Below the pieces are notes generated by a model. The model was not told the origin of the DNA. It searched no databases and worked only from the letters and a program-made list of their open reading frames with translations. From positions 1-39,954 of IMG/VR virus record IMGVR_UViG_2563366978_000009: a stretch of 39,954 nt of DNA; one strand, given 5' to 3'. This DNA is from a virus (taxonomy: Duplodnaviria > Heunggongvirae > Uroviricota > Caudoviricetes). Positions 6,924 to 29,968 of the stretch are shown one piece after another. Position 1 is the first letter of the stretch, and each line of letters opens with the position of its first letter. The position numbers were made by a program, and so were the translations under genes.

Positions 6924-6930
6924 ATTTAAA

Positions 6931-9596: not shown

Positions 9597-9668
9597 GTGG
9601 ACGAAACAAAAGTCAGTGCTACACTCATTGACGCCACATTGAGGTGGCTTATAGATGGAAATTTCACA

Positions 9669-10712: not shown

Positions 10713-13700
10713 CTATTTCATCTGCTCTTCAACTTTATTTAGTAATGGTGATATCGCCCACAGGTTCTGAAAAGGTAGCATTTTACGGACCGCGTGGGTT
10801 TGCTGGCTGTCAAATTCTCCGTTAAGTACACCATTCGCAACCGTCGCGGCATCACCGCCAAGATCAAAGGTAGGACCAAGTAAAGCACCAATAGCATTAC
10901 GACTCTGAAACCTTGATACCGGAGGCGCACCAAACATCGCGCCAAGACCAAACCTACCACCGCTTATGTTCTCAACGGTATTCAGCGGCTCAGAGAGCCA
11001 GCCAAGCATTCCGCCCCGGTCGATCCCCTCTTTCACAAGGTTATTCCAGCTGTAGTCAATATCGCGACCGCTTAACTTCTGTTTCATCATATAGACCATT
11101 GAGCCAAGCGCAATCGTGCCAAGCGCACCAAGATAGAATGCAGCATCGCCCTGCTGGATACCAGATACCAGCACCCTGTTATGCTGTGCGAAGATAAACG
11201 TTTTGAACTGCGTGATCATCTTCCAGCCTTCTTTACTAAAAAACAGCGGTGTATCACCTACGCCAGGCGTTACAATCACTGAGTCTACATCTTTCAGCAC
11301 TGCAGACTGGAAAATCTCTCTAGCGAAACGGTCATCCCACAGATGACTATGCCCGGTTAACAGCCCGTCCATATCCTCTCCGTGCTTCCCGAATTGCTCC
11401 CCGATTCGGCGCAGAACATCTTCATTGATGCCGACCTGTGCCATCTTCCGCATTTCACTTTTGGAGAGCGTGCCACCAGCAGAAACTTGGCGAGCCGCGT
11501 CAAGTATCCTCGACTGCACTATCATCCCAGACCATGATTTAAGTGCGCTGTTCCACTGATTCATCAGCGTCCAGTTACCGAATTTCTGCGTCATCCAGTT
11601 CAGGCCTCGCTCAGCGGCGCTTCTCCGGCTATATGGGTCAGTAAGATCCGCTATAGCCTTTGTACGCGTAGACAGGACATAATCAAGCCCAACGGCCATT
11701 TCTCGCAAATCCCTGGTTGCAATCTTCACTGAGTCCATATTTTTAAGCATGCTTACCATTGGTCCGAGAGATTTTCTCAGGCCATGCTGCATCATCGGTC
11801 GCATCAGATCAGTTGCAGCGGAGACGGTCATTCCACCAAGCAAACGGAGGAAGTTAATATTCCTAGCAACTCGCCCGGCACGAACAAAGAAACTGCGTGG
11901 ATCTTGAGGTGCACCGTAAGTACCAAGCAGTCGATCACGCATAGCCGTAATATCCCTAATATCAGCCTCCCGTTGCTTCTCAAGAACTGCACGTCGTTTA
12001 GGTGTTTTAGCCTCTTTTATTAGCCGGGTATATTCCTCACTAACCTGACGGATTTGCTCCCCCATATCTTTACGGCCAAACTGCGCAGTCAGCTCAATTT
12101 CTGGTGCCACCTGCCGGAGATAACTTTCCATGATGTAGTTAACATCTGATTCAAGAAAATCTTCTATACGCTCATCAGGAATAAGCAGCGTTCTGCTTTT
12201 AGTGAAACCAGCCCGACCAACGAGTCTCTCTGGGATAATATCGGCTGGTACAAGCCCGGAAGGTGCGCCTATTATTTTATTCACGATCTCGTCAGCAGCG
12301 TCCTCTGCTTCCTCTCGGGATAGAGGCTCCATCTGCTTCAGTGCTCGTTCGCGGCTTGCATTCAGCCTTGTGGTTGAATTTGCCCGTTTTTGCAGTCGGC
12401 GAAGCTCAGAACGATATTTCCGTGGATTATCCAACAACTCCATATGGCGCTGATAGACAGGAAGCTCACTCTTTGCCTGCGCTATATCATCAAGGCGTGT
12501 TTTAAGGTCAGAGCTTTCTTTCATCATTCTTGCCTGAAGTTTTTCTGATGAAGTCTCGGCCAACTCTTTTTCTATTCTTGTAAGACGCGCCTGTGTGTCA
12601 GTCTCCTGAGATATAAGCTTATTTCGTTTATCCAGTTCTTCCATGAGTAGAATTTTTTTACCAGACCATTTCTCCGCTTCAGCGATTTCACTAGCGAGAG
12701 CATCAGCGCGCGGTGCCGATTCCTCTGCAGTTTTTAGCAATGAATTTATCCTTTCAATTCGCTGACCTGCTTTGTCAGCACCTTTGGCACTAATCCCTTG
12801 TATCCAGTTGGCAATTCGCCCTCTGAATTCAGTGCGGTCGGAAAGTATCTTATCGAACTTATAAATGCGGGGAAGATAACTTTTCGCCGTCACGACATCG
12901 ATATCCTTAGGAAGGATCCCCAGTTCCTGCATACGGGCTTTTGTGGTCTCGAAAATGGGGCGGATTCTGGCGGCTGCTTGTGAAACCTCAGGAATATCAC
13001 TCTGATCACCACGGCGCATAGCCATGCCAACAGCTTCATTGAAATCAATAAAGTTCATCCTCTTCACGCCGCGGGCGCTAACAGATTTGCTGTACTGCTG
13101 GTAAGCATCACGAGTGGCTTCCATCTGCTTATAAAGCATGGCGTCGTATTGCTTAATCTTAGTCTCGACTGCCGTAAACGTAGCCAACCCCTCATCATTT
13201 TTGGCGAAGAAATAGTTATTTTCGGCAAGCTGCTGGTTAATCTGACGGGAGACAAGAGATGGTGATTGCGCCAAGCGGCCAGCAGGAGTGACACTCAACG
13301 TTTTGTTAGCAAGTCCAAGTCCAGCGAGCTGTTCCTGATCGAGTGTGGTATTGAAAACCTGAGCTGCACCAATGCTTTGAGGAGAATCCATACCTCGCAA
13401 ATGATTACCTACTGAGTTAACCACTGCCTCGCGCGCGCCAGGTCCAGCAAGTAGCTGTGCACCAGCACCAAGGATCCCACCAACGAGAGCATCAACAACA
13501 ACGTTCGATACGCTCTCCATCGGTGAGCGAGCTTCCTGAGTGGCCTGTAATGCGGCCTCTGAAGCAACACTGCCAGCAGCATTCGCCAGGGCAAAACGCC
13601 CGGCTGTTTCTGCAATACGACCGCCACGAACGACAGCGCCGAACGGAATAAACATAGAAATCGCATTGAATGGATCTGCTAATCTCATTGCTACAGAAGA

Positions 13701-14102
13701 GACTGTACCAGCAAATCCCAAGCCTGAATTGTATTCCATGTCAGCTCTCTGCTGATCGATTCGATGTTTAATTGCCATTGTTTCTTCAGGCGAACCGGAG
13801 TTGATAAACGAATCTGCAAAATCTTCATAGCCTTTAATATCTGCTGCATCGTTATCAAATGGGTTATATCCTTCAACCCTGTCAAACTGACTGAAAGGAG
13901 CACTGGCAATAAAGCTACCCAGCGTGTTATCTATACGAAATGCTGCTTGTCTAGACCTTTGAACGCGTTGATCACTGGTAAATGGGTTCACAGCAGAAAG
14001 CAAAGAAGGTGTTTCCATATAGAAATTACTGTCATCAGGTGCTGCTATTTGCTGAATATCCTCGCCAAGCAACTCTTTAGGATCCTGTTCATATATCGGC
14101 AT
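10713..14102 (-). CDS. Internal virion / ejection protein, T7 gp16-like position
   Basis: 1129 aa, directly downstream of the gp15-like and gp14-like genes; assigned by size and order. Confidence 0.55.
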   Translation of the reverse strand: MPIYEQDPKELLGEDIQQIAAPDDSNFYMETPSLLSAVNPFTSDQRVQRSRQAAFRIDNTLGSFIASAPFSQFDRVEGYNPFDNDAADIKGYEDFADSFINSGSPEETMAIKHRIDQQRADMEYNSGLGFAGTVSSVAMRLADPFNAISMFIPFGAVVRGGRIAETAGRFALANAAGSVASEAALQATQEARSPMESVSNVVVDALVGGILGAGAQLLAGPGAREAVVNSVGNHLRGMDSPQSIGAAQVFNTTLDQEQLAGLGLANKTLSVTPAGRLAQSPSLVSRQINQQLAENNYFFAKNDEGLATFTAVETKIKQYDAMLYKQMEATRDAYQQYSKSVSARGVKRMNFIDFNEAVGMAMRRGDQSDIPEVSQAAARIRPIFETTKARMQELGILPKDIDVVTAKSYLPRIYKFDKILSDRTEFRGRIANWIQGISAKGADKAGQRIERINSLLKTAEESAPRADALASEIAEAEKWSGKKILLMEELDKRNKLISQETDTQARLTRIEKELAETSSEKLQARMMKESSDLKTRLDDIAQAKSELPVYQRHMELLDNPRKYRSELRRLQKRANSTTRLNASRERALKQMEPLSREEAEDAADEIVNKIIGAPSGLVPADIIPERLVGRAGFTKSRTLLIPDERIEDFLESDVNYIMESYLRQVAPEIELTAQFGRKDMGEQIRQVSEEYTRLIKEAKTPKRRAVLEKQREADIRDITAMRDRLLGTYGAPQDPRSFFVRAGRVARNINFLRLLGGMTVSAATDLMRPMMQHGLRKSLGPMVSMLKNMDSVKIATRDLREMAVGLDYVLSTRTKAIADLTDPYSRRSAAERGLNWMTQKFGNWTLMNQWNSALKSWSGMIVQSRILDAARQVSAGGTLSKSEMRKMAQVGINEDVLRRIGEQFGKHGEDMDGLLTGHSHLWDDRFAREIFQSAVLKDVDSVIVTPGVGDTPLFFSKEGWKMITQFKTFIFAQHNRVLVSGIQQGDAAFYLGALGTIALGSMVYMMKQKLSGRDIDYSWNNLVKEGIDRGGMLGWLSEPLNTVENISGGRFGLGAMFGAPPVSRFQSRNAIGALLGPTFDLGGDAATVANGVLNGEFDSQQTHAVRKMLPFQNLWAISPLLNKVEEQMK

Positions 14103-16852
14103 TATTTGCCCCCTGCGTATATATTGCTCGGAAGGTAATTGGCTGAACCATAACCGAATGGTTTGGTCAGATCTGGAGGAGTATATCCATCTTTATTGCT
14201 GAACTGCGGCAGCGGATTGCCTTCTCTCCGCACTCTAGCCTCATCAACACGCTGTTGCTGGAACTGAATGGTTTGCCTGTACATTGGAGATGTCAGCTGA
14301 TCCGGCTTGAAACGAACAGGGAGACCATTTTCTCCAATATAATTTCTCGGTTCTATCGCTCCGTTTGCGTCAGGCTGTAAAACCATAACAGCATAACTCC
14401 TATCCCTTGCCGTAAGGCCATCAGAAACAAGTATTAAGTCCGTATCACTGCGAGGACCGCCAAAGGATTTTGATTTAAGCTCGCGTTTTTCCTGCTCCCA
14501 CTGCCCCTGTATCCAGTTACCAGCACCATTATTTACTCCGTACAATGCCTCAGGTGCATACTTCATAACCTCTGCTTTGCCATTAACCGTAGAAACTCCC
14601 CAGGTGGTTCTGATCATGGCATTGGTCATTTTCTCAGCCTGTTCTGCATCGCCACCTGTCTGTACAAAGTTAGCATCGTAAATTGTCTGGTAATCTCGCT
14701 GATAGGCCGCATTTGATTTTCCTGGATCGGTAATATCCGGAGACCACGAACCAAAGGAAGTCAGACTGCTGGCGTTATTTTGTGCAGCAGTTGCCCTCGC
14801 CGCGACATATTTTTTGTCTCGCATGGCAGTGGAAAGCATCTGTTTCATTCGGTCATCCTGTTGGAACACCTGGCTGTAAGCCATATCAACAGCCTTATCC
14901 TCCGGCACGCCAGCGCGGGAATAATCGTAAACCTTGCCGTAAAATGCCATCGTACTTTTATCAAGTGTTGCCGCTGCCGCCGGATTATTATCGAATAACT
15001 GACCGTAGAATTTTGCCATCGGGACAACCAGCGCAGGATCTCTTGATGTTGCTCCACTGTTAAGCATTGTTTTAACCTGAGTTGGTATCATGCCGCTTTT
15101 AGTTGTGACGGTGACCAGTGTATTGATGCTCTGCGGATCAGATATGGAAAACGAAGGCGCGATATCCTGCGCGAAATAACGGTCTACCGCTGCCTGATTG
15201 TTTTTGTCGTTCGGGTCCAGCGGGAAGTTATTTTGCATTGAAGACACGAACCTGTTTCTTCCCTGCTGAATCTCCCACTCCCTATCCATCTCTTTAAATT
15301 TGGCCTGCATTTTCTCCCAGCGTTGCTGGTTAGCTGCAAATCCAGGAGCGTTTGGATCCTGTGGACGTAAACGTTCAAGAATGTCTTGTCGTCCTTCTGG
15401 AGTGAGGTCTTTAGCGGCACCAATGACACCTCCATATTGTATCTGCGCCTGCATATCCTTCCACTTCATAGCGCCAATGCGCGGACCATTGGCCCGGATA
15501 AAATCGTCCTCAGAAGGTAACTGCTCAGGTTTCAATCCTTCATCAAGGGCTGAATATGCATCTTTAACTACGGTGCTAAGCTGGTCCGCATACTGCTGGC
15601 GGTACTGATTTCTCAGCTCATTAGCCTGCCTCAATGCCTGTATTTGCATTTGAGGGCTCATAGCATCAAATGCCGCATTGCCCGTATAACGCTTAGGTGA
15701 ATCAAGGTTAGTTAGACCAAGGGCTGCCGAGATACCAGTTTCAAGCTGTTCGGTGCTATAAGGCATACTGCCATTTTCGTGTTTAATAATCCCAGCACAT
15801 AAAGCAGCTAGTGTCTTTGGGTTAGAGATATCAAGCTGATCATTCTCCCCAACACCAAGCTCACTACACAATGCCCTAATATAAGCATCAGTATTATTAC
15901 CATCACTAGCCGGAGCATAGCGATTAACAATCTCGCTAACGGTGTCATAGCCTTGACGCTGGTAAGACAATATATTTTTACCCAACGCGCGGATTCCATG
16001 CTCAGGGGTAGCAAACGTTGCAAAACGTCCATCGCTACCGATCTGACCTTCCCACGGGTTAGATTTGCTCGCTTCAATATTACCAGGGTTATTATTACGT
16101 AAACCACGAGCATCCAATGAATTACCATGTGATATTGCACGACTCACACCATCAAGATCCCCTGGCTCTCCATTAACCTGAAGAAACTCGTTGTATTTTT
16201 GAGCGATATTTCCTATCCATGCTTGCTGCCCCATTTGTTCCTTGAGCTGAGTTTTCTGCTGAACACGCCACCCATCAGGAAGCCCATGCGCATCAGCATA
16301 TTGATCAATAGATTCAAATCGCTGCTTGGCTAAATCGACAAATGCTTGGTTATCGCTATATAGCCCCGCAGACTGAGTGACAGCCAATGCATTTCCTGAC
16401 AAATACGTTTGATCTTGGAATTGCTGAAACTGCCCAACTTCATATCGACGTGCCTGATTGTAATAAGACTGCATAGACTGCTGGAGTTGAAAGGATAATT
16501 TATTCCTTTCCTCACTTTCAGGAATTGAGCCTAATAATGCCTGAGCCCTTTCCTGCATATTTTTCATAACAGCGTCACTCTGACCAAGAGCGTTTTTACC
16601 CTGTTTAGAAATCAGCCCATTTTCAGGGTTGTTAATCTGGTCATCTGCAAATTGGTTAAATTGCAGTAACGCCTCCTGGGCCATAGCAACATTCGCTTTC
16701 TGCCTGGCTTCACCATATGCCACCGCATACTGATCTGCGACATTCGCCAGCACCTGACCTGCTTGAGGAACATCGAAGGTCTGAAAACCACCGGTTTGCA
16801 CACCACGACTTTGCACCTGGCGTCCGGATGTAGTAGGAACAACAGGCATCAA
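14102..16852 (-). CDS. Internal virion protein, T7 gp15-like position
   Basis: 916 aa; overlapping start/stop with flanking genes; contains a conserved-looking block RNNNPGNIEASKSNPWEGQIG. Confidence 0.55.
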   Translation of the reverse strand: MMPVVPTTSGRQVQSRGVQTGGFQTFDVPQAGQVLANVADQYAVAYGEARQKANVAMAQEALLQFNQFADDQINNPENGLISKQGKNALGQSDAVMKNMQERAQALLGSIPESEERNKLSFQLQQSMQSYYNQARRYEVGQFQQFQDQTYLSGNALAVTQSAGLYSDNQAFVDLAKQRFESIDQYADAHGLPDGWRVQQKTQLKEQMGQQAWIGNIAQKYNEFLQVNGEPGDLDGVSRAISHGNSLDARGLRNNNPGNIEASKSNPWEGQIGSDGRFATFATPEHGIRALGKNILSYQRQGYDTVSEIVNRYAPASDGNNTDAYIRALCSELGVGENDQLDISNPKTLAALCAGIIKHENGSMPYSTEQLETGISAALGLTNLDSPKRYTGNAAFDAMSPQMQIQALRQANELRNQYRQQYADQLSTVVKDAYSALDEGLKPEQLPSEDDFIRANGPRIGAMKWKDMQAQIQYGGVIGAAKDLTPEGRQDILERLRPQDPNAPGFAANQQRWEKMQAKFKEMDREWEIQQGRNRFVSSMQNNFPLDPNDKNNQAAVDRYFAQDIAPSFSISDPQSINTLVTVTTKSGMIPTQVKTMLNSGATSRDPALVVPMAKFYGQLFDNNPAAAATLDKSTMAFYGKVYDYSRAGVPEDKAVDMAYSQVFQQDDRMKQMLSTAMRDKKYVAARATAAQNNASSLTSFGSWSPDITDPGKSNAAYQRDYQTIYDANFVQTGGDAEQAEKMTNAMIRTTWGVSTVNGKAEVMKYAPEALYGVNNGAGNWIQGQWEQEKRELKSKSFGGPRSDTDLILVSDGLTARDRSYAVMVLQPDANGAIEPRNYIGENGLPVRFKPDQLTSPMYRQTIQFQQQRVDEARVRREGNPLPQFSNKDGYTPPDLTKPFGYGSANYLPSNIYAGGK

Positions 16853-17415
16853 TAACCTCCTATTTTGAATCGGGAGTCAGAATTCATAAAACCTGAGTTA
16901 GATAACATTGGCGTGTTTCCTTGCTTACTAATCGGATTGATACTTCCGCCACCCAACTTATATGCACCGTATGCTTTTAGTGGTGCCGTTAACAAAGTGC
17001 TGGTCATCGATGATTTAGCAGCCGACTGAGCAGCAGCCCCCTGTGCCTGAGCATTCATTCCCTGAACCTGATACCCATATGCCTCACGCTGAGCATTATT
17101 CACTGTCGTTAACGCATCAAGAGTGCCGAACTGAGCATTATCCGCAAAAACGTCAAGAGCTGTTCCGCTACTTAATTCCGCACCGGTAGCCCCCATAGTA
17201 GCCGCCGCAGTGCCTGAGCGTTGACGCATTTCACGACGACGCTGATCCGCTTCAATATTCCCACGATTGATTGAATCCTGTGCCTGAGCTTCAGCAATTT
17301 CAGCATTCCGATCTGCTATGGCTGACTGGTATTTTGCCTGCTTGCTCTGGCTGTACATTGACGCTGCTGTGGATGCCACTGTGACGGCAACCAAAGCGAT
17401 GGCTGGGTTACACAT
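16849..17415 (-). CDS. Internal virion protein, T7 gp14-like
   Basis: 188 aa; N-terminus MCNPAIALVAVTVASTAASMYSQSKQAKYQSAIADRNAEI parallels the T7 gp14 N-terminus as recalled. Confidence 0.6.
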   Translation of the reverse strand: MCNPAIALVAVTVASTAASMYSQSKQAKYQSAIADRNAEIAEAQAQDSINRGNIEADQRRREMRQRSGTAAATMGATGAELSSGTALDVFADNAQFGTLDALTTVNNAQREAYGYQVQGMNAQAQGAAAQSAAKSSMTSTLLTAPLKAYGAYKLGGGSINPISKQGNTPMLSNSGFMNSDSRFKIGGY

Positions 17416-17879
17416 TATTTTCTCTCCATGTGAAATCTGTGGAAATTAAGACCAAGAGCACCATAAGGCGCGGCTTCTTCAAGCCTGAATCCAAGCCAGT
17501 GCAGCCATGCTTTGGCAACATGGTTTCGCTCGTCGACGTAGTTTTCCAGGCGCGGATAAACTGCCAGCATCTGCTGCAATACAGGTCGGCAGTGGCGAAG
17601 AAATGTCTTCTGATATTTTTCAATACGGCTGGTTCCGACCAGCCAGGGTGTACCATTGCCACCGATCATTGACGCCGGAGATACACCAAACATGGTTACC
17701 AGTTCTCCGTTCGCGAACCCTGACCAGGCCATAGTCGCAGTGCGAAGACCAACACGCAGCGCATCTTCGGTAGTCATCAGCGATACCGCATACAGTTCGT
17801 CAATATCAGCCTGACGAACATCCGGCAAAATCATCTGAAGATGCTCTTCGGTGGCGGGAATAATTCGAACATCGATCAT
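17415..17879 (-). CDS. Hypothetical virion/assembly protein (gp13 position)
   Basis: 154 aa, translationally coupled between the gp12-like and gp14-like genes. Confidence 0.5.
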   Translation of the reverse strand: MIDVRIIPATEEHLQMILPDVRQADIDELYAVSLMTTEDALRVGLRTATMAWSGFANGELVTMFGVSPASMIGGNGTPWLVGTSRIEKYQKTFLRHCRPVLQQMLAVYPRLENYVDERNHVAKAWLHWLGFRLEEAAPYGALGLNFHRFHMERK

Positions 17880-20344
17880 CAGAATCCCCCAACAGTAAGA
17901 CGAGGAATAACGGCAAGAACAGACAGCGGCAACGGGTCAAGCTGACGGATTCTTACACGTCCGTTTTTGCCCCAGTTACTGTCCAGTTTCACTTCTACTT
18001 TTCCGGTAGCGTCATCAACAGGATCATCGTAGAACTCGAATTCACGCTGTGGATATTCGTACCATTTACCGCCGGGCGTAGTCGCCCAGATGCCACGACT
18101 GGCATTCACAACCAGAGTAACGGACGGGATCACCTGTTTTTTGTCCAGCAGCGTTTCCTGTCCGTTAATGTTGATATCCAGTGTTTCGAATTCAGCAGTT
18201 ATTGGCAGGCCGATGTGCACTACAGCCCCAGGTGATTCCAGCGTGACGGCACCTCCGGAAACCACTTTCTGTGGTTCCACGTTCGCATCAGAGAGAATGT
18301 TTACGGTCTGGCCTTCAAGATGAGACAGGCCTCCAAATGTCCGGCGCGCCATCTGCCAGTTCGTGGTGGCCACATTCCTGAGGGATGGCGGGACGTTCCT
18401 GTTAGCACGAACCACTACAGCGGTATTGCTGGTTACAGAAATAATGTCGCAACGTAATTCTTTTGACACTTCAGTATCAGGATCAGTTCCGGTATAAGGG
18501 AACTGTAGTTGCGCGCCGACATCACTACTGGTGAAGTACGCACCACCAGAAACACTGATTGTATATTCCGCACGGTAATCCCATTCACCAGAACCACCAG
18601 TGATGGTCATCGTTCTGTCAGACGTATTTCTTCCATCATAGCTAAGGCCAGAATCAACAAAGAAAGCATCTTCATCGCTGGTAAATAAACGGCTGGACAG
18701 TCGCTCTATGTATCTCACTGTTTGCCCGTTAACGGTTCGGTTAACGACGAAATACACCGCATCTTCATTGCCTTCGCTGATACTGCATGTGCTTTCATAT
18801 TTTCCGGTACTGGATTGTGGTGCCCATGCAAAAACCTGCTGATCACGCAAATAGGTCATCACCAGTAATTTACCGTCATCACGAATGCAGAAGGCGCTGG
18901 AGTAAGGGACAATCGAGAAGCACCAGTCAACAATGCTGTGCTTCTGAAAAAGATGATTGGCAAGGATGGTCAGGTCGTTCCCCTGATAGCCGTCAACATC
19001 GAATGAGTAGGCCAGATCACGGACAACACTGCCTTTCTCCTGGACGAACAGAGCAATATTCGCCACGGCAATTGGTGGGACATTGCTCGAGCCATTTGAT
19101 CCCTGAGAGCTGAATGCAAATGATGATGGGGTAAGCACTTTGTTCTGGTCGCCAGTGATGACGTACTCACCTCCGGAAGTCAGCGCCACCAGCGAACCAA
19201 CATCAATCAGGTGACGGATCTCATTAACCTGACGCCCGGCATAGGTGTAGATAATTCTGTCGTCATCCTGCGTAGGATTGCTTTTGCCAAAATCCTTATA
19301 ATCCCCGGTACGGCTGGCCCAGATAGTCTGAGGGAACGCAGTCGATGCGGCGAAGTAAAGGCGTTGTTGATAATAAACAACAGTGCCAGGATAACCGTTA
19401 ATACTGTTCCAGGCATATTTAGCCCATTTATAGCTGGCATTATCCTCGCCAACTACCTGCGAAGGGATATAGGAAATCACCTCGGCAGTTGCAGTAGTTC
19501 CATTTGCAGCAGAGATACGGGCAATGCCAAAACCACTGTGCAGATACTCCCACTCAATGCCGGTATCATCATCACCGGATCCGCCCCAGCCATCCCATGA
19601 TGTGCCTTCTGTATGCGAAGGGCGCAAAGTGCCTGTTTTGCCTGCTGTAACGGCGCGATAGTAGTTACTGTCTGCACGGCGAATATCGCCAATCGACGTA
19701 CTCTTACTGGTTTCCCATACCGGCACAGAATCCACTGCAGGCTGTTCCAGATAGAACAATTTGCCTACCTGCTCCGCGCCAAAAATTGAGGCGCTTGCCG
19801 TTAACGTAATTGTCCCGGTGCTGGCGCTGGCATAAACCGTCACTGACTCGTCAATATTGATATCTTCAAATGGCCCGTTCTTCGTTACCACATCAACCAG
19901 TTGCCAGTTGTCATGCGCATAGCGGCGCAACTCTTTCGGCGGGTATGCCGGATGAACCAGCGTAAGCACGTCTGCGCTTTGCGTGAATTTAATTCGGAAC
20001 AGATCGGCTTCAGTATATGGCGTGGCAATTTCATAAATAACATTGCTGCTGTTCAGCACCAACGCACCATCTTTGATAACGCGCATGTACTGGTGTCCGA
20101 ACTCCAGAGCATAGGTCTGAACCGTCGAGAACTGGAACGGGATCAGGCGGCATTTCCGATTTGGGTATTTGGCGGCACCGACAAAACGCGTACCAGGTCG
20201 ATTCTCAACGCCGCCATACTGCCGCACGATAAAGTTATCGCACTTGCGCAATGCCACCTGGTACTTCGCCATGTCGATACGACCGTACAACGACGGTCCA
20301 ATCTCACCACCGGCAAAGCTGGGCTGGATCCAACTGATAGCCAT
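17879..20344 (-). CDS. Tail tubular protein B, T7 gp12-like
   Basis: 821 aa; N-terminus MAISWIQPSFAGGEIGPSLYGRID follows the gp12 pattern (I.Q....GG...P); follows the gp11-like gene. Confidence 0.6.
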   Translation of the reverse strand: MAISWIQPSFAGGEIGPSLYGRIDMAKYQVALRKCDNFIVRQYGGVENRPGTRFVGAAKYPNRKCRLIPFQFSTVQTYALEFGHQYMRVIKDGALVLNSSNVIYEIATPYTEADLFRIKFTQSADVLTLVHPAYPPKELRRYAHDNWQLVDVVTKNGPFEDINIDESVTVYASASTGTITLTASASIFGAEQVGKLFYLEQPAVDSVPVWETSKSTSIGDIRRADSNYYRAVTAGKTGTLRPSHTEGTSWDGWGGSGDDDTGIEWEYLHSGFGIARISAANGTTATAEVISYIPSQVVGEDNASYKWAKYAWNSINGYPGTVVYYQQRLYFAASTAFPQTIWASRTGDYKDFGKSNPTQDDDRIIYTYAGRQVNEIRHLIDVGSLVALTSGGEYVITGDQNKVLTPSSFAFSSQGSNGSSNVPPIAVANIALFVQEKGSVVRDLAYSFDVDGYQGNDLTILANHLFQKHSIVDWCFSIVPYSSAFCIRDDGKLLVMTYLRDQQVFAWAPQSSTGKYESTCSISEGNEDAVYFVVNRTVNGQTVRYIERLSSRLFTSDEDAFFVDSGLSYDGRNTSDRTMTITGGSGEWDYRAEYTISVSGGAYFTSSDVGAQLQFPYTGTDPDTEVSKELRCDIISVTSNTAVVVRANRNVPPSLRNVATTNWQMARRTFGGLSHLEGQTVNILSDANVEPQKVVSGGAVTLESPGAVVHIGLPITAEFETLDININGQETLLDKKQVIPSVTLVVNASRGIWATTPGGKWYEYPQREFEFYDDPVDDATGKVEVKLDSNWGKNGRVRIRQLDPLPLSVLAVIPRLTVGGF

Positions 20345-20952
20345 CAGGACAACCTCGCAATGGTAAACTCGTCAACCGGTGGCTGTGGTTCCTGTGATTC
20401 ATTCTGGCTATGCGAGCCAGCACTAAGAATCACGCGATTGTACATATTGAGGGCAAACGTACCGAGGTCTGCATTCCCAGTCAGCGCCATGTTAATAGCT
20501 GCCGCAAGACGCCAGGCCAACGCCTCCATAAAAATGGCATCAAACATGTTCACATCTGAAACGCGAGAGACATACTTGAGCCATGCCTGAGGCTGGTCTG
20601 TGTAGATCAACTTTCCTGTTCCGTTGGTGTCTGCACCAACTTCGTACTGAACGCGCATTGATGCTGTTGGATTGCGTACACCAGGAAGCATAATTTCAGT
20701 AATGCGCAGACAATCTGACGGGTACTGGTACGCATATTCCCAGTCAGGCGGTGGATTGCTCGTATCTGCAAGCGCCACGCGTTTGGTAGCAAAGTTCCAG
20801 TCAAAATCAGAAAGCACAGCATCACGGCAGGCCTCAAAGTGCAGCGAACATTCCCCCGCTTCCTTGCTGGCTTCCGTCAGGCTGTTAATGCTGCGGCTGT
20901 TGCCAATATTGGACAGCGCACGATTGCAGATCTCTACTACAGAGGCCATCAC
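20344..20952 (-). CDS. Tail tubular protein A, T7 gp11-like
   Basis: 202 aa; N-terminal pattern ICNRALSNIG...SLTE resembles gp11 (ILASIGEPPVSTLE); start overlaps upstream stop. Confidence 0.55.
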   Translation of the reverse strand: MMASVVEICNRALSNIGNSRSINSLTEASKEAGECSLHFEACRDAVLSDFDWNFATKRVALADTSNPPPDWEYAYQYPSDCLRITEIMLPGVRNPTASMRVQYEVGADTNGTGKLIYTDQPQAWLKYVSRVSDVNMFDAIFMEALAWRLAAAINMALTGNADLGTFALNMYNRVILSAGSHSQNESQEPQPPVDEFTIARLS

Positions 20953-21278
20953 TCACCTCCGTTACCGTACAGAGTTTCAGCCGCTGATTTTTCTACATCA
21001 CCGGAAACAGGAGCGATCGCCATATCAGTGATCTGCAGATCGGCGCTGCGATTAACGCCATCGTCAGTTTCTCTGGCAGACAGGCCTCGAATAACAGCCT
21101 TTGCAGTTATCATCACTTCTGTTCCGACGCCCTGAGGTTGCGCCTTCAGCTTATTCAATGTGTCGTTATTCAGCGTGATGCACAGCCCCCACGGGTATTC
21201 ATCGCGAGTTCTGGTTTCTCCGCTCTCATCCTGGTAGCTGTCAGTGCCGGTTTTGAGGTTTACGAGTTCCATATACAC
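20949..21278 (-). CDS. Hypothetical head/neck protein
   Basis: ORF in the capsid-to-tail interval; likely start MELVNLK at 21272 with GGAG RBS. Confidence 0.45.
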   Translation of the reverse strand: MYMELVNLKTGTDSYQDESGETRTRDEYPWGLCITLNNDTLNKLKAQPQGVGTEVMITAKAVIRGLSARETDDGVNRSADLQITDMAIAPVSGDVEKSAAETLYGNGGE

Positions 21279-21288
21279 TCCTGCAATA

Positions 21289-21306
21289 AAGGGGCCGAAG
21301 CCCCTT
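21289..21306 (-). terminator. Intra-operon GC hairpin with UUCG loop
   Basis: AAGGGGC CGAA GCCCCTT between two late genes; reads as a UUCG tetraloop on the transcribed strand. Confidence 0.35.
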
Positions 21307-21322
21307 GTCTCATCCGCGAGGC

Positions 21323-21667
21323 TTACACGCCCAGTTCTTTACGCTTATCTGCGATCTTCTCGCGGAGCGTTTCTGCTTTGGCGTTATGGTGTGGCTTCTC
21401 GTTAAAGAGCAATTCGTACTCTTCACGGAGCTTATCCAGTTCACCATCATCTGACACATCGTTGATGATTTTGGTGCTGGTTGCTGCCATAGACACCTTT
21501 CCTGCTACCTTTGCTTTTGCCTGTCTGGCTGCATCGTTAACAGGTTCCAGTGCGCTACCAGGCTCACCTTCGTATTCGATTTCTGCCCCCTCCGGCCACA
21601 GAGTGTTATGGATATGAGAGAGGCGCAGAACGCGGTATCTTGGTTTCTCACCTGACATCAATATCAC
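21323..21667 (-). CDS. Hypothetical head protein
   Basis: 114 aa ORF in the late operon; charged C-terminal half. Confidence 0.45.
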   Translation of the reverse strand: MILMSGEKPRYRVLRLSHIHNTLWPEGAEIEYEGEPGSALEPVNDAARQAKAKVAGKVSMAATSTKIINDVSDDGELDKLREEYELLFNEKPHHNAKAETLREKIADKRKELGV

Positions 21668-21668
21668 C

Positions 21669-22106
21669 TTAACCAGTTACTTTTGAGCGGATCGGATACG
21701 GCGTATTGGCATCAACATCAAGATTGATACCCGCAGTGAATTTGCCAGCCGTTAGTGGGCCAGTTGCGACGGAGTAGTTAACACGCAGATATCGCTGAAC
21801 ACCGGCTGGCACCTTTGCAGAAACAACTCGCTTACCTGCTGTCAGGGTGGCCTTTGCCAGTGCGCCACTATCATAAATAGTGGACCATGAGCTGTTATTC
21901 TCACTCGTCTGCAACTGGATGTTTACAGTTGCCTCACCACTTGCCGTGGCGGCTTCGTTAACCAGCGCCCAAAACTCAAGCGGGTAACCCACACCGATAT
22001 CGCGACGGTTTCCGTCAATTGGACCGAGATCGATTACGTCAGTAGAAGCCGCGGTATTCGTAACCGCCTGAGCTTCGGAGAACATCAACAGTTTGTCGGT
22101 GATCAT
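21669..22106 (-). CDS. Hypothetical head protein (possible decoration protein)
   Basis: 145 aa, immediately downstream of the major capsid gene; GGAG RBS. Confidence 0.45.
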   Translation of the reverse strand: MITDKLLMFSEAQAVTNTAASTDVIDLGPIDGNRRDIGVGYPLEFWALVNEAATASGEATVNIQLQTSENNSSWSTIYDSGALAKATLTAGKRVVSAKVPAGVQRYLRVNYSVATGPLTAGKFTAGINLDVDANTPYPIRSKVTG

Positions 22107-22123
22107 CTTCTTTCTCCATTAGT

Positions 22124-22142
22124 GGGTCTGTTACGACCCACA
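22124..22142 (-). terminator. Hairpin directly after the major capsid gene
   Basis: GTGGGTC GTTAC GACCCAC between the capsid stop and the next RBS. Confidence 0.35.
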
Positions 22143-22157
22143 GGTTAATAACAGGCG

Positions 22158-23150
22158 TTACACCACGCGGGCTTCTGTTTCCAGAAGTGCGTCAGTTTCG
22201 CGAATCGGCACACCACGAAGTTCTGTCCACCATTCGCCTTCTGTCTCTTTCACGCTGATCGCCAGAGAACTCTTCTCCAGAGATTGCAGGTCAAGCACTT
22301 CGTTAATGGTTCTGTTCATGTAGAAAATAGGACGTCCCATCCCACGATTTGGGATTCGATGAAGGGCACGAATCATCAGTTTTGCGATATTCGCAGCAGT
22401 AGAAGGAGCGTCAAGATTGCTGACATCGATGTTTGCAATGCGAACAACATAGCGCCAGTCACGCAATGTCAGCCCGTTGTCCCACTTATAATGGGTACGA
22501 TAACCTTCGTACTTGCCGCCATTAGCATCTTCCAGTGTCACCTGGCCTTTATCTTCCATCTGGATGCCAGCCTTCTGCCCTTTCGGGAAGATGCCATGCA
22601 CGGTGTTTTCGCCCCACACCACTAACCAGATTGAAGTGTTATCTGTACCCGTGCCACCAGCATCAATGATGTTCTGAGCATTACCCGCAGACAGGCTGGA
22701 ATAGCGGGAGGACAGTCCCATAAACTGCTGAGGGTTAACGCTGGAATCACCGTAAAACAGCGTCTGCGCCATCGCCTGATTCATCGCTTCAATAAATGCT
22801 CGGTCTTCAGACAGGCGGAATTCGGCAGTATTACCGTTCAGATCAGCCAGAGACTTATCGACTTCAGCATAGGTTTCCAGCATGCCAATGGAATCAGTGA
22901 CCTGCACCGTTGTTGATTTGCTCGGTTGTACGCCATAGTTCAGCAAACGCCAGGTAGCGGAAGGCAAACCAGAACGAATGGTGGTTCGGTGTCCGGTAGG
23001 AAGGTTTCCTTCAACAAAAGGCATATCCTGAAGGATTGGGTTGGTTTGACTGAGAAGCTCGATAATCTTATCGACTTTCCCGTTTGGATCGACGCGCTTA
23101 CCCCAGTCAGCCAGCGTTAGCGCAGTTAAGCCTTTAACAGCCATTGTCAT
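22158..23150 (-). CDS. Major capsid protein
   Basis: 330 aa, directly downstream of the scaffold-like gene and followed by an attenuator hairpin; assigned by position and size. Confidence 0.6.
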   Translation of the reverse strand: MTMAVKGLTALTLADWGKRVDPNGKVDKIIELLSQTNPILQDMPFVEGNLPTGHRTTIRSGLPSATWRLLNYGVQPSKSTTVQVTDSIGMLETYAEVDKSLADLNGNTAEFRLSEDRAFIEAMNQAMAQTLFYGDSSVNPQQFMGLSSRYSSLSAGNAQNIIDAGGTGTDNTSIWLVVWGENTVHGIFPKGQKAGIQMEDKGQVTLEDANGGKYEGYRTHYKWDNGLTLRDWRYVVRIANIDVSNLDAPSTAANIAKLMIRALHRIPNRGMGRPIFYMNRTINEVLDLQSLEKSSLAISVKETEGEWWTELRGVPIRETDALLETEARVV

Positions 23151-23158
23151 TTCCTCTC

Positions 23159-23860
23159 TTATTTGCCATAGAGCACTTCGGCCGCACTACGCTGGCCTTC
23201 ATTACCACCGGTGACCATGCCATCTTCAGACATCGCCTTTCCGATTTTCACGAACGTTTTGACCAGATCAGGGTGATTACCCAGCCCGGTGGTGTTCAGA
23301 TATTCTTTGAGTTCAGGTGTCCCGAACTGGTCAAGCGCACGCTGTGCGGCGCTGAGGTTAGAAATTAACTTGTCGCCACCGATTTCTTTGTCAGCTTTTA
23401 CATCAGCAGCCCACTGCTCGGTTGTTTTCTGCCAGGCTTCTGCCTGGCGCTGCTGCACACCTCCCAGAATCTTCGGATAAGCATCAACCAGCTTTTGCGC
23501 TTGCTCGTTGGTCAGGTTAAGTTCTCGCGCCACCGGCTCGAATTCCTTTAACGCTTCTGTATCCAGCTCTACGCCTTCGGCAGCCTGAAACTCGTACTTC
23601 TCCGGCGCACCATCCGGTTTATCGCCGTCCTTTTTTTCACCCTGCTTATCGCTTTCAGGCTTTTTGTCATCAGCAGGTTTATCGCCATCAGCAACAGGTT
23701 GCGGCTTATCACCTTCTTGTTGTGATGGATCACCAACTGGAGCAGGGGTATCACCTGCAGGCGCTGACGGTTCTGACGCAGCCGGAGCTGCTCCACCATC
23801 GACTGGTTGCTCATTGCAAAGACGGCGATACAGCAAACGCTCAAATAAACTCATGATCAC
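23159..23860 (-). CDS. Scaffolding protein
   Basis: Acidic Pro/Asp/Lys/Glu-rich low-complexity N-half with a helical C-half; between portal and capsid; start probably MSLFERLL. Confidence 0.55.
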   Translation of the reverse strand: MIMSLFERLLYRRLCNEQPVDGGAAPAASEPSAPAGDTPAPVGDPSQQEGDKPQPVADGDKPADDKKPESDKQGEKKDGDKPDGAPEKYEFQAAEGVELDTEALKEFEPVARELNLTNEQAQKLVDAYPKILGGVQQRQAEAWQKTTEQWAADVKADKEIGGDKLISNLSAAQRALDQFGTPELKEYLNTTGLGNHPDLVKTFVKIGKAMSEDGMVTGGNEGQRSAAEVLYGK

Positions 23861-24153
23861 TCCTGTTCACTGGCCTCTTTGGCCATCTTCAAATACTGTT
23901 CAGGGCAATGCGCCATAACGCGCTGAAACAGTTCCAGCGCCAGATTGCGTTGCCCCTCATTAAATGCCATTGCCATAGCATCCATCGGAGAGATAGCGGA
24001 AAACACCCGGCCTTTCTCCAGCACAGACCAGACAACGCGACGCCCCTGTTCACTGCTCATGACAAAGCGAATGTCATCAATTTCACGCTGTGCCATGTCA
24101 CGTTGCTTACGGGCGTTTTCTTCTTTCAGTTGATCGTCTTCGTAATCTGTCAT
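23857..24153 (-). CDS. Hypothetical small acidic head-assembly protein
   Basis: 98 aa; ATGA-type overlaps with the portal stop and scaffold start. Confidence 0.45.
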   Translation of the reverse strand: MTDYEDDQLKEENARKQRDMAQREIDDIRFVMSSEQGRRVVWSVLEKGRVFSAISPMDAMAMAFNEGQRNLALELFQRVMAHCPEQYLKMAKEASEQE

Positions 24154-25829
24154 TGTGATTGCCCACCCTGACCACTAACTGCATTCGCCATAGCTGACAA
24201 AACACTCGGATCCGAAGTTTTAGCTTCGCTTAGCGTCTTGGCACCCTGTGCCGCCGCCATCCCCATCTCCATCATTTGTTGCTGCTGTTGTTGCTGTGCC
24301 CGTTGCTGGCGAGCCTGCTCAACCTGTTCCTGCGGAACAATGACGGTTGGAGACACTCCGGACATATCAGCGAATGCATCGATCGCCTGATCAACGTTGA
24401 GTTTGTCGAGAGCTTCTGGTTTCGCTTGCGCAAGTTGACCAATGAAGTTGACCGTAGACGCCAGACTGGACAGGCCGATAGACTTCTGCGCCTGAGCCAT
24501 GACGGAAATGTATTCGACCTTCAGGGGCATACCTTCCATCGCGTCAGGCGGTGGCGGCAGCATGTTTTTACGCACCATCATCGAGAAAGCGCGGTCAATG
24601 AGAGGATTAAGACATTCGTCGTTCAGACGCTCCAGAACCGGCCCCAACATCAGAAGTTTTTCTTCTTTCATTTCGATCACCGCTTCAACAGGCATCGAGC
24701 GGGTATTGATGTTCTGCAACATCATGAACAGATCGACAAAGTAGGCGCTGTTAATGATTTGACGAGTGTCCTGAATGTCTGCCACCAAATCTGCTGTACT
24801 GGGGTTAACCAGATAAGCAGGCCTGAAGCCATCCTGACCAGTAATCTGATCGATATACGTGATGTCGCCAGGAAGAAGGGAGGCGCGCTGATTCTTGAGG
24901 GAAGTCGGAGCAACCATCGGCGGATTGGTGGCTTTATCAATCAACTGCGACTTGCGCTTCTGGAGAAGCTGCAATGCCTTAACAGGTCCAAGCGCCAGCA
25001 TACCCGGGCATGATGATCCATAAACATCTTCGCCATTAACTTCCCAGCGCGGAGCCATAATTGGAAACTCATCGAATCCGGACTCACGCAACAACTTGTC
25101 GTTATCTCCACCAACCTCGTAATAAACCGATTTGAATGGCTTGTTCTTGCTATCCAGCTTCGATGTATCGCGGTCAATGTTCGGGTAAACCGAATGCATC
25201 ACTTCAATCCACTTCTCGTAGGTGCCGCTTTCCCACATGCTTTTTACGGATTCGCTGACGTTATTTAGCCCGAACTCCTGAACAAGCTGACGAACAGTCA
25301 TAGAGAACTTGCGAAAACAGGTGTCAACACTGCCACGAGGTGAGTTAGCCAGGTAGTAACTGCCTATCGGGAATGGCATTGTGCGAATGATGTCCTCGTC
25401 ATCCTCCAGCACTGCCATTGCACCAGTGCTGTATGTGCCGAGGCTTCCGTATAACTGCGGAAGAGACTGGTAGAGATTCGACTTATTGAACATATCGTTC
25501 ATGCGGTTCTGAACTGCCTCAAGCCACAACTTAACAGGGCCATAATCCATCATTTCAGGATCTGGCGTAGCCAGGCGAAACCACGGACGCGCGGGGCTTG
25601 TGATGCCTGACATCATGCCGCTGGCGAGAGTGCGCGCCGCCATAGTCCCGGTCGAATCAATAATGCGTGTATTGCGCCGATCGTTACGGTTGACCTCAGA
25701 AGTCAGAAAGCGGGAACCACGCGGGTTGATGTAATCACTCAACTCGCGCCAGTGCGGCTCGAACGACTGACGCTCGCTTTCAAGTTGTGCGAACTGTTTG
25801 TTCAATCGCTCTTTAGTTGTTTCCGCCAT
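24150..25829 (-). CDS. Portal protein, T7 gp8-like
   Basis: 559 aa, downstream of the large terminase; Gln-rich C-terminus (QARQQRAQQQQQQQMMEMGMAAAQGAK) resembles the gp8 C-terminus as recalled. Confidence 0.7.
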   Translation of the reverse strand: MAETTKERLNKQFAQLESERQSFEPHWRELSDYINPRGSRFLTSEVNRNDRRNTRIIDSTGTMAARTLASGMMSGITSPARPWFRLATPDPEMMDYGPVKLWLEAVQNRMNDMFNKSNLYQSLPQLYGSLGTYSTGAMAVLEDDEDIIRTMPFPIGSYYLANSPRGSVDTCFRKFSMTVRQLVQEFGLNNVSESVKSMWESGTYEKWIEVMHSVYPNIDRDTSKLDSKNKPFKSVYYEVGGDNDKLLRESGFDEFPIMAPRWEVNGEDVYGSSCPGMLALGPVKALQLLQKRKSQLIDKATNPPMVAPTSLKNQRASLLPGDITYIDQITGQDGFRPAYLVNPSTADLVADIQDTRQIINSAYFVDLFMMLQNINTRSMPVEAVIEMKEEKLLMLGPVLERLNDECLNPLIDRAFSMMVRKNMLPPPPDAMEGMPLKVEYISVMAQAQKSIGLSSLASTVNFIGQLAQAKPEALDKLNVDQAIDAFADMSGVSPTVIVPQEQVEQARQQRAQQQQQQQMMEMGMAAAQGAKTLSEAKTSDPSVLSAMANAVSGQGGQSQ

Positions 25830-26118: not shown

Positions 26119-26155
26119 TTGACATTTAACGCACAAATTATTACCTTTCAGGTAA
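26119..26155. promoter_or_regulatory. TTGACA -35 element followed by operator palindrome TTACC-N5-GGTAA (perfect, 26141..26155)
   Basis: TTGACA at 26119..26124; TTACCTTTCAGGTAA 17 nt downstream; candidate promoter for the plus-strand tRNA island. No clear -10. Confidence 0.45.
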
Positions 26156-26772: not shown

Positions 26773-26800
26773 AATCATGAAAAACTTCAAGGTAATTAGC

Positions 26801-29067: not shown

Positions 29068-29660
29068 TGATTACCATCCTGACGTTCTTTGAGTCGCTTC
29101 CTGGCTGCTGCTATGCGATCAGCAATTGTCACATTCACATTAACATCCAGGCGTTCTTTGAATGCGTTGACGTCGACGTGCTTACCAATCAGTTCGAGGT
29201 TCTTCACCTTGTCAGGCCATTTAATTTTTTTGAGGATTGTCTCTATCGAATCCTCGTTCATGTTCATGATGGTCGATGACAGATCAAAGCCGCTAAGCGT
29301 AGTGCGCCAGATTTTCGGCCACTCGCGGATTGGCTTAAGGCTCCCATCGTCGTTGAGGATGTCGATCACGTCCATCTGGTCGATCTCCACCAGGCGCATG
29401 AGAACGTAATCAGCACTGACGCGCATTCGTTTGTTGCGCTCCTCCATCAACTCGGCAATCCGTTTCTGAATGCGTTCATCGCGCATCATGACACTGGCTT
29501 TAACTGCCGCTGTATTTGGGGAGAATCCTGCGTTAATCGCAGCCTGAGTCTGATTTTCAGGCGTTTTGATGTATGACTGGCAATAAGCCTCCTGCATTGC
29601 TGTTAGTGGCTTAAATTGCGTTGATTTGCGTTTATAGGTTTTAGGTTCAGCAGGCATCAT
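29064..29660 (-). CDS. Terminase small subunit
   Basis: Start MMPAEPKTYKRK at 29660 with GGTGG RBS; the longer ORF to 29738 adds a poly-Thr extension; position before terL. Confidence 0.55.
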   Translation of the reverse strand: MMPAEPKTYKRKSTQFKPLTAMQEAYCQSYIKTPENQTQAAINAGFSPNTAAVKASVMMRDERIQKRIAELMEERNKRMRVSADYVLMRLVEIDQMDVIDILNDDGSLKPIREWPKIWRTTLSGFDLSSTIMNMNEDSIETILKKIKWPDKVKNLELIGKHVDVNAFKERLDVNVNVTIADRIAAARKRLKERQDGNQ

Positions 29661-29734
29661 AACCACCGTGGTAATAGTTACCGTTGTGGTAATAGTACCA
29701 TGCAAAATAAAGCCGCCATAGTTGGCGGCAGTAT

Positions 29735-29968
29735 TCAAAGTCCATCAAATTCATCGTAAAAACTCTCGTCAAGATACCCTTCCCATTTACCGCGAATGAA
29801 AATTACATCCTCGCCGCAAGGGTGCTGACTGTCGATAACTATATCCCTCCTGGCGCAACCATACTTATGCATGAGAAATTTAACCTCTTTCGGAAAATTT
29901 GCTGAGTTATCTCTCATATCTTCAAGGTCGTAGCGTATTTTTGGCATAACACCTTCGTGACATGTCAC
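29735..29968 (-). CDS. Hypothetical protein
   Basis: 77 aa ORF coupled between early and terminase genes. Confidence 0.4.
   Translation of the reverse strand: MTCHEGVMPKIRYDLEDMRDNSANFPKEVKFLMHKYGCARRDIVIDSQHPCGEDVIFIRGKWEGYLDESFYDEFDGL

Follow-up and report, generated by a model that had tools for sequence, protein, structure and literature searches.

How does a phage with T7-like tail genes come to live as a prophage under lambda-like control, and what switches on its late genes? Both questions are raised by a 39,954-nucleotide (nt) stretch of viral DNA (IMG/VR record IMGVR_UViG_2563366978_000009, hereafter the window), in which positions 10713-25829 encode a virion and its DNA-ejection machinery. 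The original prediction, made from the sequence without database searches, described a mosaic genome in which a T7-type virion and injection module stands under lambdoid immunity and replication control. Thirteen open reading frames (ORFs), all in one direction and tightly packed, lie between 10713, where the stop codon of a 1129-amino-acid (aa) gp16-like ORF ends, and 25829, the first base of the ORF for a portal protein (559 aa, minus strand). We are highly confident that this segment, taken as a whole, is best explained as the head, tail and DNA-ejection operon of a Uetakevirus prophage. The observation holds, with some details wrongly described, and it is not new: GenBank contains near-identical genomes, and E. 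coli commonly carries the prophage.

Identity and location of the prophage

Comparison with known genomes by megablast identifies the window, on its sequence, as E. coli chromosomal DNA joined to an integrated prophage of the genus Uetakevirus (epsilon15/phiV10-like). EC.W1-9 matches the operon at 98.6% identity across 95% of 10713-25829. Phages phiV10, TL-2011b, HEMP4, ZX5, PAS61 and phiv142-3 match at about 97% over window positions ~17400-25829, and Enterobacter phage Tyrion and Salmonella phage PAT1 match the region at about 82% and 77%, respectively. The rest of the window is also collinear with these phages, which have been classified or described as epsilon15-like temperate podophages of the genus Uetakevirus (PMC9782041). 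Genome-wide nucleotide similarity and synteny with recognised members of the genus are therefore both present, and the same identity and collinearity exclude a set of structural genes that lacks them. The whole-genome comparison with epsilon15- and phiV10-type phages, which the original prediction had proposed as a check, thus came out as collinearity, the parts that match being 97-98.6% identical to those of the E. coli members. The mosaic organization is nothing unusual; it is the standard, published architecture of Uetakevirus (PMC4819975).

At the left end of the window, bases 1-516 are the host gene yfgH (a Gly-zipper lipoprotein) and bases 532-1071 the host gene yfgI (DUF5384), and the junction between prophage and host, next to yfgI, lies at about 1072-1290. 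A related prophage adjoins yfgH and yfgI in the complete chromosome of E. coli O166:H15, as annotated by PGAP, and its ejection segment is 99.9% identical to that of the window; this segment is found in 172 of 5426 complete E. coli genomes. The RefSeq record of TL-2011b holds copies of yfgH and yfgI as gp55 and gp54, and the label 'DNA methyltransferase' on the yfgH copy looks like a misannotation. Integration of ZX5 has been reported at the 3′ end of guaA (PMC9782041). The ORF list of the window (1-39954) contains no integrase ORF, and synteny with TL-2011b would place the integrase gene just past base 39954. By the gene order of K-12, the 3′ end of guaA and the yfgH/yfgI position would be the same site.

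Head, tail and ejection proteins

The genes of the operon, all on the minus strand, begin with a portal of the T7 gp8 family (24150..25829). It scores 624 bits with PF12236, the family of the T7 head-tail connector, falls in phrog_332 and is 80.5% identical to epsilon15 gp4. T7 proteins were scanned against the same PHROG libraries as the window proteins, and the portals cross-match reciprocally between phrog_332 (window) and phrog_449 (T7), which bears out the T7-type portal of the original prediction.

The head genes that follow are of another kind. They encode a Bbp19-family small protein (23857..24153; PF25181, 62.8 bits), a head maturation protease (23159..23860; phrog_458 'protease', E 2e-109), a major capsid protein of the epsilon15 gp7 type (22158..23150; PF20911 GP7, 494 bits; 43% identical to epsilon15 gp7), a Bbp16-family capsid cement protein (21669..22106; PF21190, 164.6 bits), a conserved small protein of the structural module (21323..21667; phrog_590, no Pfam match) and an epsilon15 gp10-like capsid staple protein (20949..21278; PF21628, 173.5 bits; named 'capsid staple protein' by PGAP). 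The three profiles that mark a Uetakevirus capsid, PF20911, PF21628 and PF21190, are all matched far over their cutoffs. The capsid protein belongs to phrog_212 versus phrog_267 for that of T7. T7 has no counterpart of the protease and instead uses the scaffold gp9, whose PHROG, phrog_1052, is matched by no window protein. Both terminase subunits, encoded on the minus strand upstream of the portal operon, are also not of the T7 type: the small subunit (terS, 29064-29657) matches PF03592 and phrog_51, and the large subunit (terL, 27592-29067) falls in phrog_2 versus phrog_38 for T7. The T7-type capsid gp10, scaffold gp9 and terminase (gp18, gp19) are thus missing from the window, in a scan that left out T7 gp18. 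To speak of a T7-type virion was therefore an overstatement, given that the capsid, protease, cement, staple and terminase proteins belong to epsilon15/BPP-1 or siphovirus-like families (PMC4819975).

The tail is where the likeness to T7 lies. The tail adaptor, or tail tubular protein A (20344..20952), is 84% identical to epsilon15 gp11. Its sequence profile, run against the sequences of the PDB, reached only the adaptors of marine phage Carin-1 and Legionella phage LME-1 and not T7, so that a fold search was needed. With an AF2 model (pLDDT 95), Foldseek returned the Carin-1 adaptor as the best match (8ck1_E, TM 0.87), the LME-1 adaptor as well, and then a run of Autographiviridae adaptors; T7 gp11 (7box, 6r21, 7ey7) was matched with a Foldseek probability of 1.0 and a TM of ~0.62. 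Tail tubular protein A is thus of the T7 gp11 fold, as had been proposed. The next gene encodes the tail nozzle, or tail tubular protein B, the equivalent of gp12 (17879..20344). It is 88% identical to epsilon15 gp12 and matches 8ck1_A, 'Tail Nozzle', with E 5e-218 and the LME-1 nozzle, 9efk_M, with E 2e-15. Hardies et al. reported an HMM-HMM (hidden Markov model) match of E<1e-10 between the tubular-tail-B groups of epsilon15 gp12 and T7 gp12 (PMC4819975). Our own hhalign comparison with a single T7 gp12 sequence was non-significant, and the two proteins fall in different PHROGs. A homologue search with the nozzle returned only relatives ≥82% identical, too similar to one another for a deep profile. 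Support for a T7-type assignment of this protein is therefore indirect, through the solved nozzles, epsilon15 gp12 and the published comparison.

Two small core proteins follow. Internal virion protein A (17415..17879, 154 aa) is T7 gp13-like, as it belongs to a PHROG that includes T7 gp13 (phrog_308, E 2e-62). Internal virion protein B (16849..17415, 188 aa), the gp14-like protein already noted from the sequence, scores 32.9 bits with PF24072 T7_gp14 (cutoff 27), and PGAP agrees, naming it 'virion core protein, T7 gp14 family'.

The protein in the gp15 position (14102..16852, 916 aa; phrog_1044) contains a lytic transglycosylase domain at aa 248-400, which matches 9vvp_L and 7q47, and over its N-terminal ~500 aa it shares 44-48% identity with epsilon15 gp15 and Tyrion gp16. 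It shares no PHROG with T7 gp15 (1044 versus 1339); hhalign gave E 0.059, and phmmer and BLASTP were non-significant. We assign gp15 equivalence by position only, with which the size agrees. The homology of the epsilon15-group gp15 to that of T7 is likewise unconfirmed in PMC4819975. The last gene of the operon (10713..14102) encodes internal virion protein D, the 1129-aa T7 gp16-like protein, which matches phrog_342, a PHROG that includes T7 gp16, with E 4e-233. Residues 21-1129 align to positions 192-1227 of the profile; missing are the first ~190 positions, which hold the transglycosylase domain in T7 gp16. In the window this domain sits in the gp15-position protein, not in the gp16-like protein. 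The gene order is that of T7, gp8...gp11-12-13-14-15-16, so that the proposed gp15/gp16-like pair in T7 order is confirmed in its order and in gp16, through phrog_342, but in gp15 by position only. If they behave as in T7 and in the epsilon15 studies cited in PMC4819975 and PMC12391199, the core proteins would be packaged above the portal and, on infection, would be ejected through the nozzle to form a transient channel across the envelope.

Directly after the gp16-like stop codon (10713-10715) stands the start codon (10709-10711) of a 283-aa ORF on the minus strand (9860-10711; phrog_6118; no Pfam or PADLOC match), which could be an additional virion or ejection protein.

The distal part of the operon varies within the genus. 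Segment 10713-16686 is only about 81% similar to prophage-like phages of Klebsiella, and megablast does not match it to phiV10. The 916-aa protein resembles epsilon15 gp15 over its N-terminal ~500 aa only (44%). For the 1129-aa protein, BLASTP matched neither epsilon15 gp16 nor gp17, but TL-2011b gp38 is 31-42% identical to it. In the PHROG scan, the epsilon15/phiV10-type cassette comprises three proteins (phrog_992, 1145 and 684), and the TL-2011b/EC.W1-9 type, as in the window, two (phrog_1044 and phrog_342, the PHROG of T7 gp16). On these sequence comparisons we regard the ejection cassette of the window (10713-16852) as a swapped allele; the variation itself is already found within known genomes.

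How close, then, is the relationship to T7? The comparisons of window proteins with T7 proteins by phmmer and BLASTP were non-significant, as were all hhalign comparisons of Uetakevirus alignments with T7 gp11, gp12, gp15 and gp16, in which the T7 side consisted of single sequences and a deep T7 alignment would be needed. These pairwise and shallow-profile results weigh against a T7-type reading of the tail, and because of them the nozzle homology rests on a solved homologue and on the literature, and that of gp15 on position. The evidence supports a distant T7-type homology of the tail (portal, adaptor, nozzle) and of the internal ejection proteins, whose genes stand in T7 order; the relation is visible in profiles and folds only. 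The T7-type sequence patterns reported for them are accordingly borne out as profile and fold homology, but none was seen pairwise by phmmer or BLASTP. Profile searches of the structural proteins, proposed as the test that could refute the T7 assignment, place the portal and the gp13-, gp14- and gp16-like proteins in T7-type families, to which the adaptor is added by its fold and the nozzle indirectly, and the capsid, protease, decoration and terminase proteins in non-T7 ones.

In a different history, this genome would be a chimera, recent or novel, that arose when a virulent T7-like phage recombined with a lambdoid prophage. Tail and core genes in T7 order beside a lambda-like early region are what such an event would leave, but we consider it extremely improbable. 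Pairwise similarity to T7 proteins is lacking, and the homology is ancient, seen in profiles and folds only. Moreover, Uetakeviruses known for a long time align collinearly with all of the window (matched parts are 97-98.6% identical in the E. coli members and ~77-82% in PAT1 and Tyrion), and PMC4819975 describes this same architecture, as PMC12407071 does for related phages. We therefore retain the integrated Uetakevirus prophage, with its ancient homology to T7, as the explanation of the operon.

Immunity and control of the late genes

The original prediction saw no phage RNA polymerase, and we agree: a tblastn search of the window with T7 RNA polymerase gave a best E of 0.82, and every ORF of more than 330 aa is assigned as a portal, terminase, tail or ejection protein. 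Without a phage polymerase, host RNA polymerase must transcribe everything.

The prophage repressor is of the SPC32H Rep type (35465..36049, plus strand), with HTH_3 and YdaS-like helix-turn-helix (HTH) domains and a full-length match to 5d50_A (E 4e-42). A profile scan found HTH domains only, and no S24 autocleavage domain. Divergent from it is the gene of a Cro-like protein (35080..35310, minus strand; phrog_35), 80% identical to epsilon15 gp39. Away from this pair, a canonical LexA box (6628-6643, plus strand; CTGTATAAATATACAG) lies directly upstream of the gene for a 90-aa antirepressor of the SPC32H type (Ant; 6651-6923, plus strand; 5d50_E, E 1.6e-46, ~85% identical). It has been reported that Rep tetramers bind palindromic operators and are taken apart by Ant (PMC9638917). 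Homology shows the immunity system to be of the SPC32H type, in which a non-cleavable Rep would be inactivated by a LexA-controlled Ant, and the sequence suggests that induction most likely works by LexA-controlled antirepression. The predicted cro/repressor switch is thus present as divergent repressor and cro genes, but its mechanism is not that of lambda, given a Rep without S24 and a LexA-controlled Ant.

A second, larger antirepressor gene (8074-8730), which encodes an AntA domain and an SPC32H-Ant-like C-terminal domain, lies immediately downstream of two Rfam matches, isrK (7839-7915) and the C4 antisense RNA (7940-8024). The immI locus of phage P1 is an RNA-controlled antirepressor module, and by analogy 7839-8730 looks like a module of this type beside the LexA-controlled one.

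The evidence supports a lambda-like layout of the early region, in which the repressor and cro genes diverge, promoters resemble P_L and P_R, iterons lie inside the initiator gene, and lambda P is present. The replication initiator (33898-34713, minus strand) contains HTH_36 and DnaT domains, with six iterons at 34310-34462 inside its gene, and it is followed by a lambda P homologue (33116-33916, minus strand; PF06992, 191 bits). The O/P-like pair with iterons that had been proposed thus holds for lambda P (PF06992) and for the six iterons but not for the initiator, which is of the HTH_36 plus DnaT type and not lambda O (PF04492). Nor is the recombination module of the Bet type; it consists of RecT (37445-38413, plus strand; PF03837) and a RecE-like PDDEXK exonuclease (36654-37475, plus strand; PF12684, DUF3799).

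The strongest clue to late control is a 15-bp palindrome, TTACC-N5-GGTAA (extended form ATTACC-N5-GGTAAT), which occurs 16 times in the window against 0.86 copies expected by chance. All but one of the 16 copies are intergenic, though intergenic DNA makes up 8.4% of the window (P ~1e-15). They lie at 2949, 6574, 7695, 7788, 8802, 26141, 26758, 29660, 29678, 33002, 33064, 35010, 35347, 35395, 36107 and 36169. The spacings of the pairs (62, 48, 62, 18 and 93 bp) are identical in TL-2011b. Palindromes stand on either side of the P_L- and P_R-like promoters. A pair (29660..29692) lies 35 nt upstream of the terS ATG, and the equivalent site of epsilon15 (12-27) is annotated as a repressor-binding site in RefSeq, as the equivalent palindromes of epsilon15 already are in that record. 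A single copy (26141..26155) lies 105 nt upstream of the operon that begins with the gp3-like gene and the portal, at the same offset in four other Uetakevirus genomes. Measured to the first start codon, the palindromes stand at 35 nt for terS, 105 nt for the portal, and ~120 nt for both the tailspike and the lysis unit, and in many cases they overlap a -10-like element. The 105- and ~120-nt offsets recur in the window, TL-2011b, Tyrion, epsilon15 and PAT1 wherever a site is found (the lysis-unit site is absent in TL-2011b and has two mismatches in the window, where it lies at about 3205), and the 35-nt terS offset was verified in four genomes, with PAT1, for which the terS start is assumed, left out. 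These five genomes carry the same palindrome arms although their repressors are 42-98% identical; because the arms are the same in all five, operator-repressor covariation cannot serve as a test.

The conserved repressor-type operators at the late units are likely the answer to the question of late-gene activation. Each late unit (terS, portal, tailspike, lysis) would have its own host-type promoter occluded by Rep, and Ant-driven antirepression would then release the whole lytic programme. Whether late expression is gated mainly by the removal of Rep, whose binding to the operators is predicted from their sequence, we judge to be evenly balanced. In its strict form, with no dedicated late activator or antiterminator, Rep gating every late unit directly and one LexA-controlled antirepressor unlocking all of them, this model is a tentative suggestion that is rather more likely to fail than to hold. 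The C1 protein of phage P1 governs a global repressor regulon, and Rep-gated late expression may by analogy be likened to it, but in a temperate phage with a T7-type tail. Several points weigh against such gating. The binding of Rep to the dispersed palindromes is itself a prediction from sequence; simple derepression alone would not explain the delayed timing of late genes; and a terminator directly upstream of terS, together with two regulator-like proteins, leaves room for an activator or for antitermination.

As the original prediction had put it, no activator of the late genes is evident: we found no Q, N, nut, sigma factor or polymerase in the window. Profile scans of the window proteins gave no match to the Q family, the first genes on the P_L side are not Arg-rich as an N-like protein would be, boxA/nut matches are at chance level, Rfam returned no antitermination RNA, and no phage sigma factor or polymerase was found. 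A literature survey, which did not include the primary papers on epsilon15 and SPC32H, found no description of late-gene control in Uetakevirus.

The terminator bears on the idea that late transcription is read-through from the P_R-like promoter, with antitermination at the hairpin 29731-29712, as lambda Q does at tR' or as the put RNA of HK022 does. The genes from cro (35310) to terS are indeed all on one strand, and between the last early gene and terS stands a strong hairpin (29712..29731, minus strand; GCCGCC-aactat-GGCGGC, followed by TTTATTTT), which is kept in TL-2011b and whose epsilon15 equivalent is annotated as a rho-independent terminator. Yet the Q-family, N-like and nut elements and the antitermination RNA that this would call for are the ones missing from the searches above. 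In addition, genes on the opposite strand (26777-27595 and 6651-9830) interrupt the late region, so that no single read-through transcript could span the portal, tailspike and lysis units; each of them has its own operator-bearing upstream region. We therefore think read-through quite improbable.

A dedicated phage activator is a somewhat better candidate, which we nonetheless hold to be unlikely; it would act on the palindromes or on other sites and would be one of two proteins. One is a 112-aa Cys-rich protein (29965..30303, minus strand), the homologue of epsilon15 gp49, whose gene stands immediately upstream of terS in the window, TL-2011b, Tyrion, epsilon15 and PAT1, and has a homologue beside a terminase gene in a Logan contig (L004). 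Its PHROG (phrog_536) is labelled 'transcriptional regulator', its invariant Cys residues suggest a Zn-binding motif, and the putative terS promoter has no good -35 element. The other is a leftward-operon protein (38869-39120) that matches PF06069 PerC at 30 bits against a cutoff of 22.6. Several observations argue the other way. A lambdoid prophage of Edwardsiella with a Q antiterminator of its own carries, in its nin region, a homologue 77% identical to the 112-aa protein, the epsilon15 record likens its homologue to N15 gp46, and the 112-aa protein matches no DNA-binding family of Pfam or NCBIfam; its AF2 model (pLDDT 57) was uninformative and not used for a fold search. Moreover, the early promoters resembling P_L and P_R carry the palindromes too, which is what one would expect if a repressor, and not a late activator, bound them. 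The 112-aa protein is thus probably not the late activator, and gating mainly by the removal of Rep, at about even odds, is the reading that we prefer.

The Edwardsiella case deserves a note. In the E. piscicida prophage (L003, 6001-6339), which has DnaB-type replication genes, the homologue sits in the nin region upstream of Q, and its presence there makes the family a mobile nin-type gene that is not specific to Uetakevirus. The family counts at least 769 proteins, and the 120 matches listed all have uninformative names ('hypothetical protein', 'phage protein').

Accessory genes and comparison with known systems

The remaining late genes, all on the minus strand, encode the tailspike (3494-6469), holins (2388-3096), the GH19 endolysin (1769-2398), which the profile scan confirms as proposed, and a spanin (1290-1772). 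Between the terminase and portal operons, a tRNA gene (26478-26551, plus strand; tRNA-Arg in the related prophage according to PGAP) lies in a variable accessory locus, and an ORF of ~270 aa (26777-27595, plus strand; phrog_4780) lies between terL and the portal operon on the strand opposite to both. It has weak coiled-coil similarity to the defence proteins DndD and LmuB and may be an accessory (moron) or defence gene; PADLOC gave only weak coiled-coil noise for the accessory ORFs. Close to terS, an additional ORF of ~70 aa (29735-29947, minus strand; phrog_1541) separates the 112-aa gene from the terS terminator; TL-2011b lacks it and has a gap of 122 bp there.

On the plus strand, the leftward operon includes an AlpA-like excisionase or regulator (38463-38711) and the PerC-family transcriptional activator mentioned above (38869-39120; PF06069, 30 bits); regulators of the PerC/Pch type control virulence genes in pathogenic E. 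coli. Segment 9004-9830, also on the plus strand, holds a YafO-toxin-like ORF (PF13957, 26 bits) and then an ORF for a small membrane-associated protein, and may be a toxin-antitoxin or exclusion locus. A 242-aa protein (6946-7674, minus strand; phrog_6762) contains repeated Zn-ribbon stretches like those of endonuclease VII and of Lar-like restriction-alleviation proteins.

An observation from outside the window concerns the adaptor family. Many of its metagenomic representatives are long (~400-1800 aa), and match the gp11-fold adaptor (~200 aa) in up to eight stretches. Two of the sequences were inspected, P0241 and P0244; their copies are in tandem and diverged, and by this such proteins look like real 'poly-adaptor' proteins and not assembly artefacts; we know of no prior description of them.

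A T7-like tail on a temperate genome that depends on the host polymerase is the normal state of a widespread prophage genus of E. coli and Salmonella. This matters mainly for correct annotation: PF12236, PF20911 and PF24072, combined with the Rep/Ant pair, can be used to recognize such prophages. Within the genus, the ejection-protein cassette exists in two or more versions that can be exchanged. The loose end of some value is how the late genes are switched on, and the conserved layout of the operators makes late-gene control in the genus directly testable.

Set beside known systems, the window is closest to the Uetakeviruses epsilon15, phiV10, TL-2011b, vB_EcoP_ZX5 and EC.W1-9, with which it shares synteny and the capsid, tail, lysis, replication and immunity genes. 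The ATTACC-N5-GGTAAT operator set recurs there at the same offsets, so that a Rep/Ant pair with dispersed operators is found on both sides. The window differs from them in the C-terminus of its tailspike, in accessory genes and in the extra small ORF before the terS terminator, and from epsilon15 and phiV10 in having the two-protein distal ejection cassette of the TL-2011b/EC.W1-9 type in place of three proteins.

With T7 the window has in common the portal family, a gp11-fold adaptor, on indirect support the nozzle, proteins of the gp13, gp14 and gp16 families, and their order. T7 has an RNA polymerase, a different capsid, the scaffold gp9 and a different terminase, whereas the window has a protease and no polymerase; it is also temperate and loads its replication in the host-type manner through lambda P. 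The transglycosylase domain, at the N-terminus of gp16 in T7, is here in the gp15-position protein. Lambda and the lambdoid phages share with the window the divergent repressor and cro genes, flanking promoters with paired operators, iterons in the initiator gene followed by P, accessory genes of the nin kind and a leftward operon that includes a recombination module. The S24 repressor, O-family initiator, Bet/Exo, N, nut and Q of lambda are all lacking in the window, whose operators are in addition dispersed across the late region. The full-length Rep, the small Ant and the LexA box upstream of its gene are as in SPC32H (5d50), but the window has the larger AntA plus Ant-C antirepressor behind the isrK and C4 RNA genes as well.

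For the adaptor and nozzle, the closest solved structures are those of marine phage Carin-1 (8ck1) and Legionella phage LME-1 (9efk), which infect other hosts and whose tail proteins alone are detectably related to those of the window. According to PMC12407071, LME-1 has a T7-like tail and its genes follow the T7 order, yet its sequence is not similar to that of T7; the epsilon15 group has been described as combining T7-like tail and internal proteins in T7 order with a siphovirus-like capsid and terminase and a temperate early region (PMC4819975).

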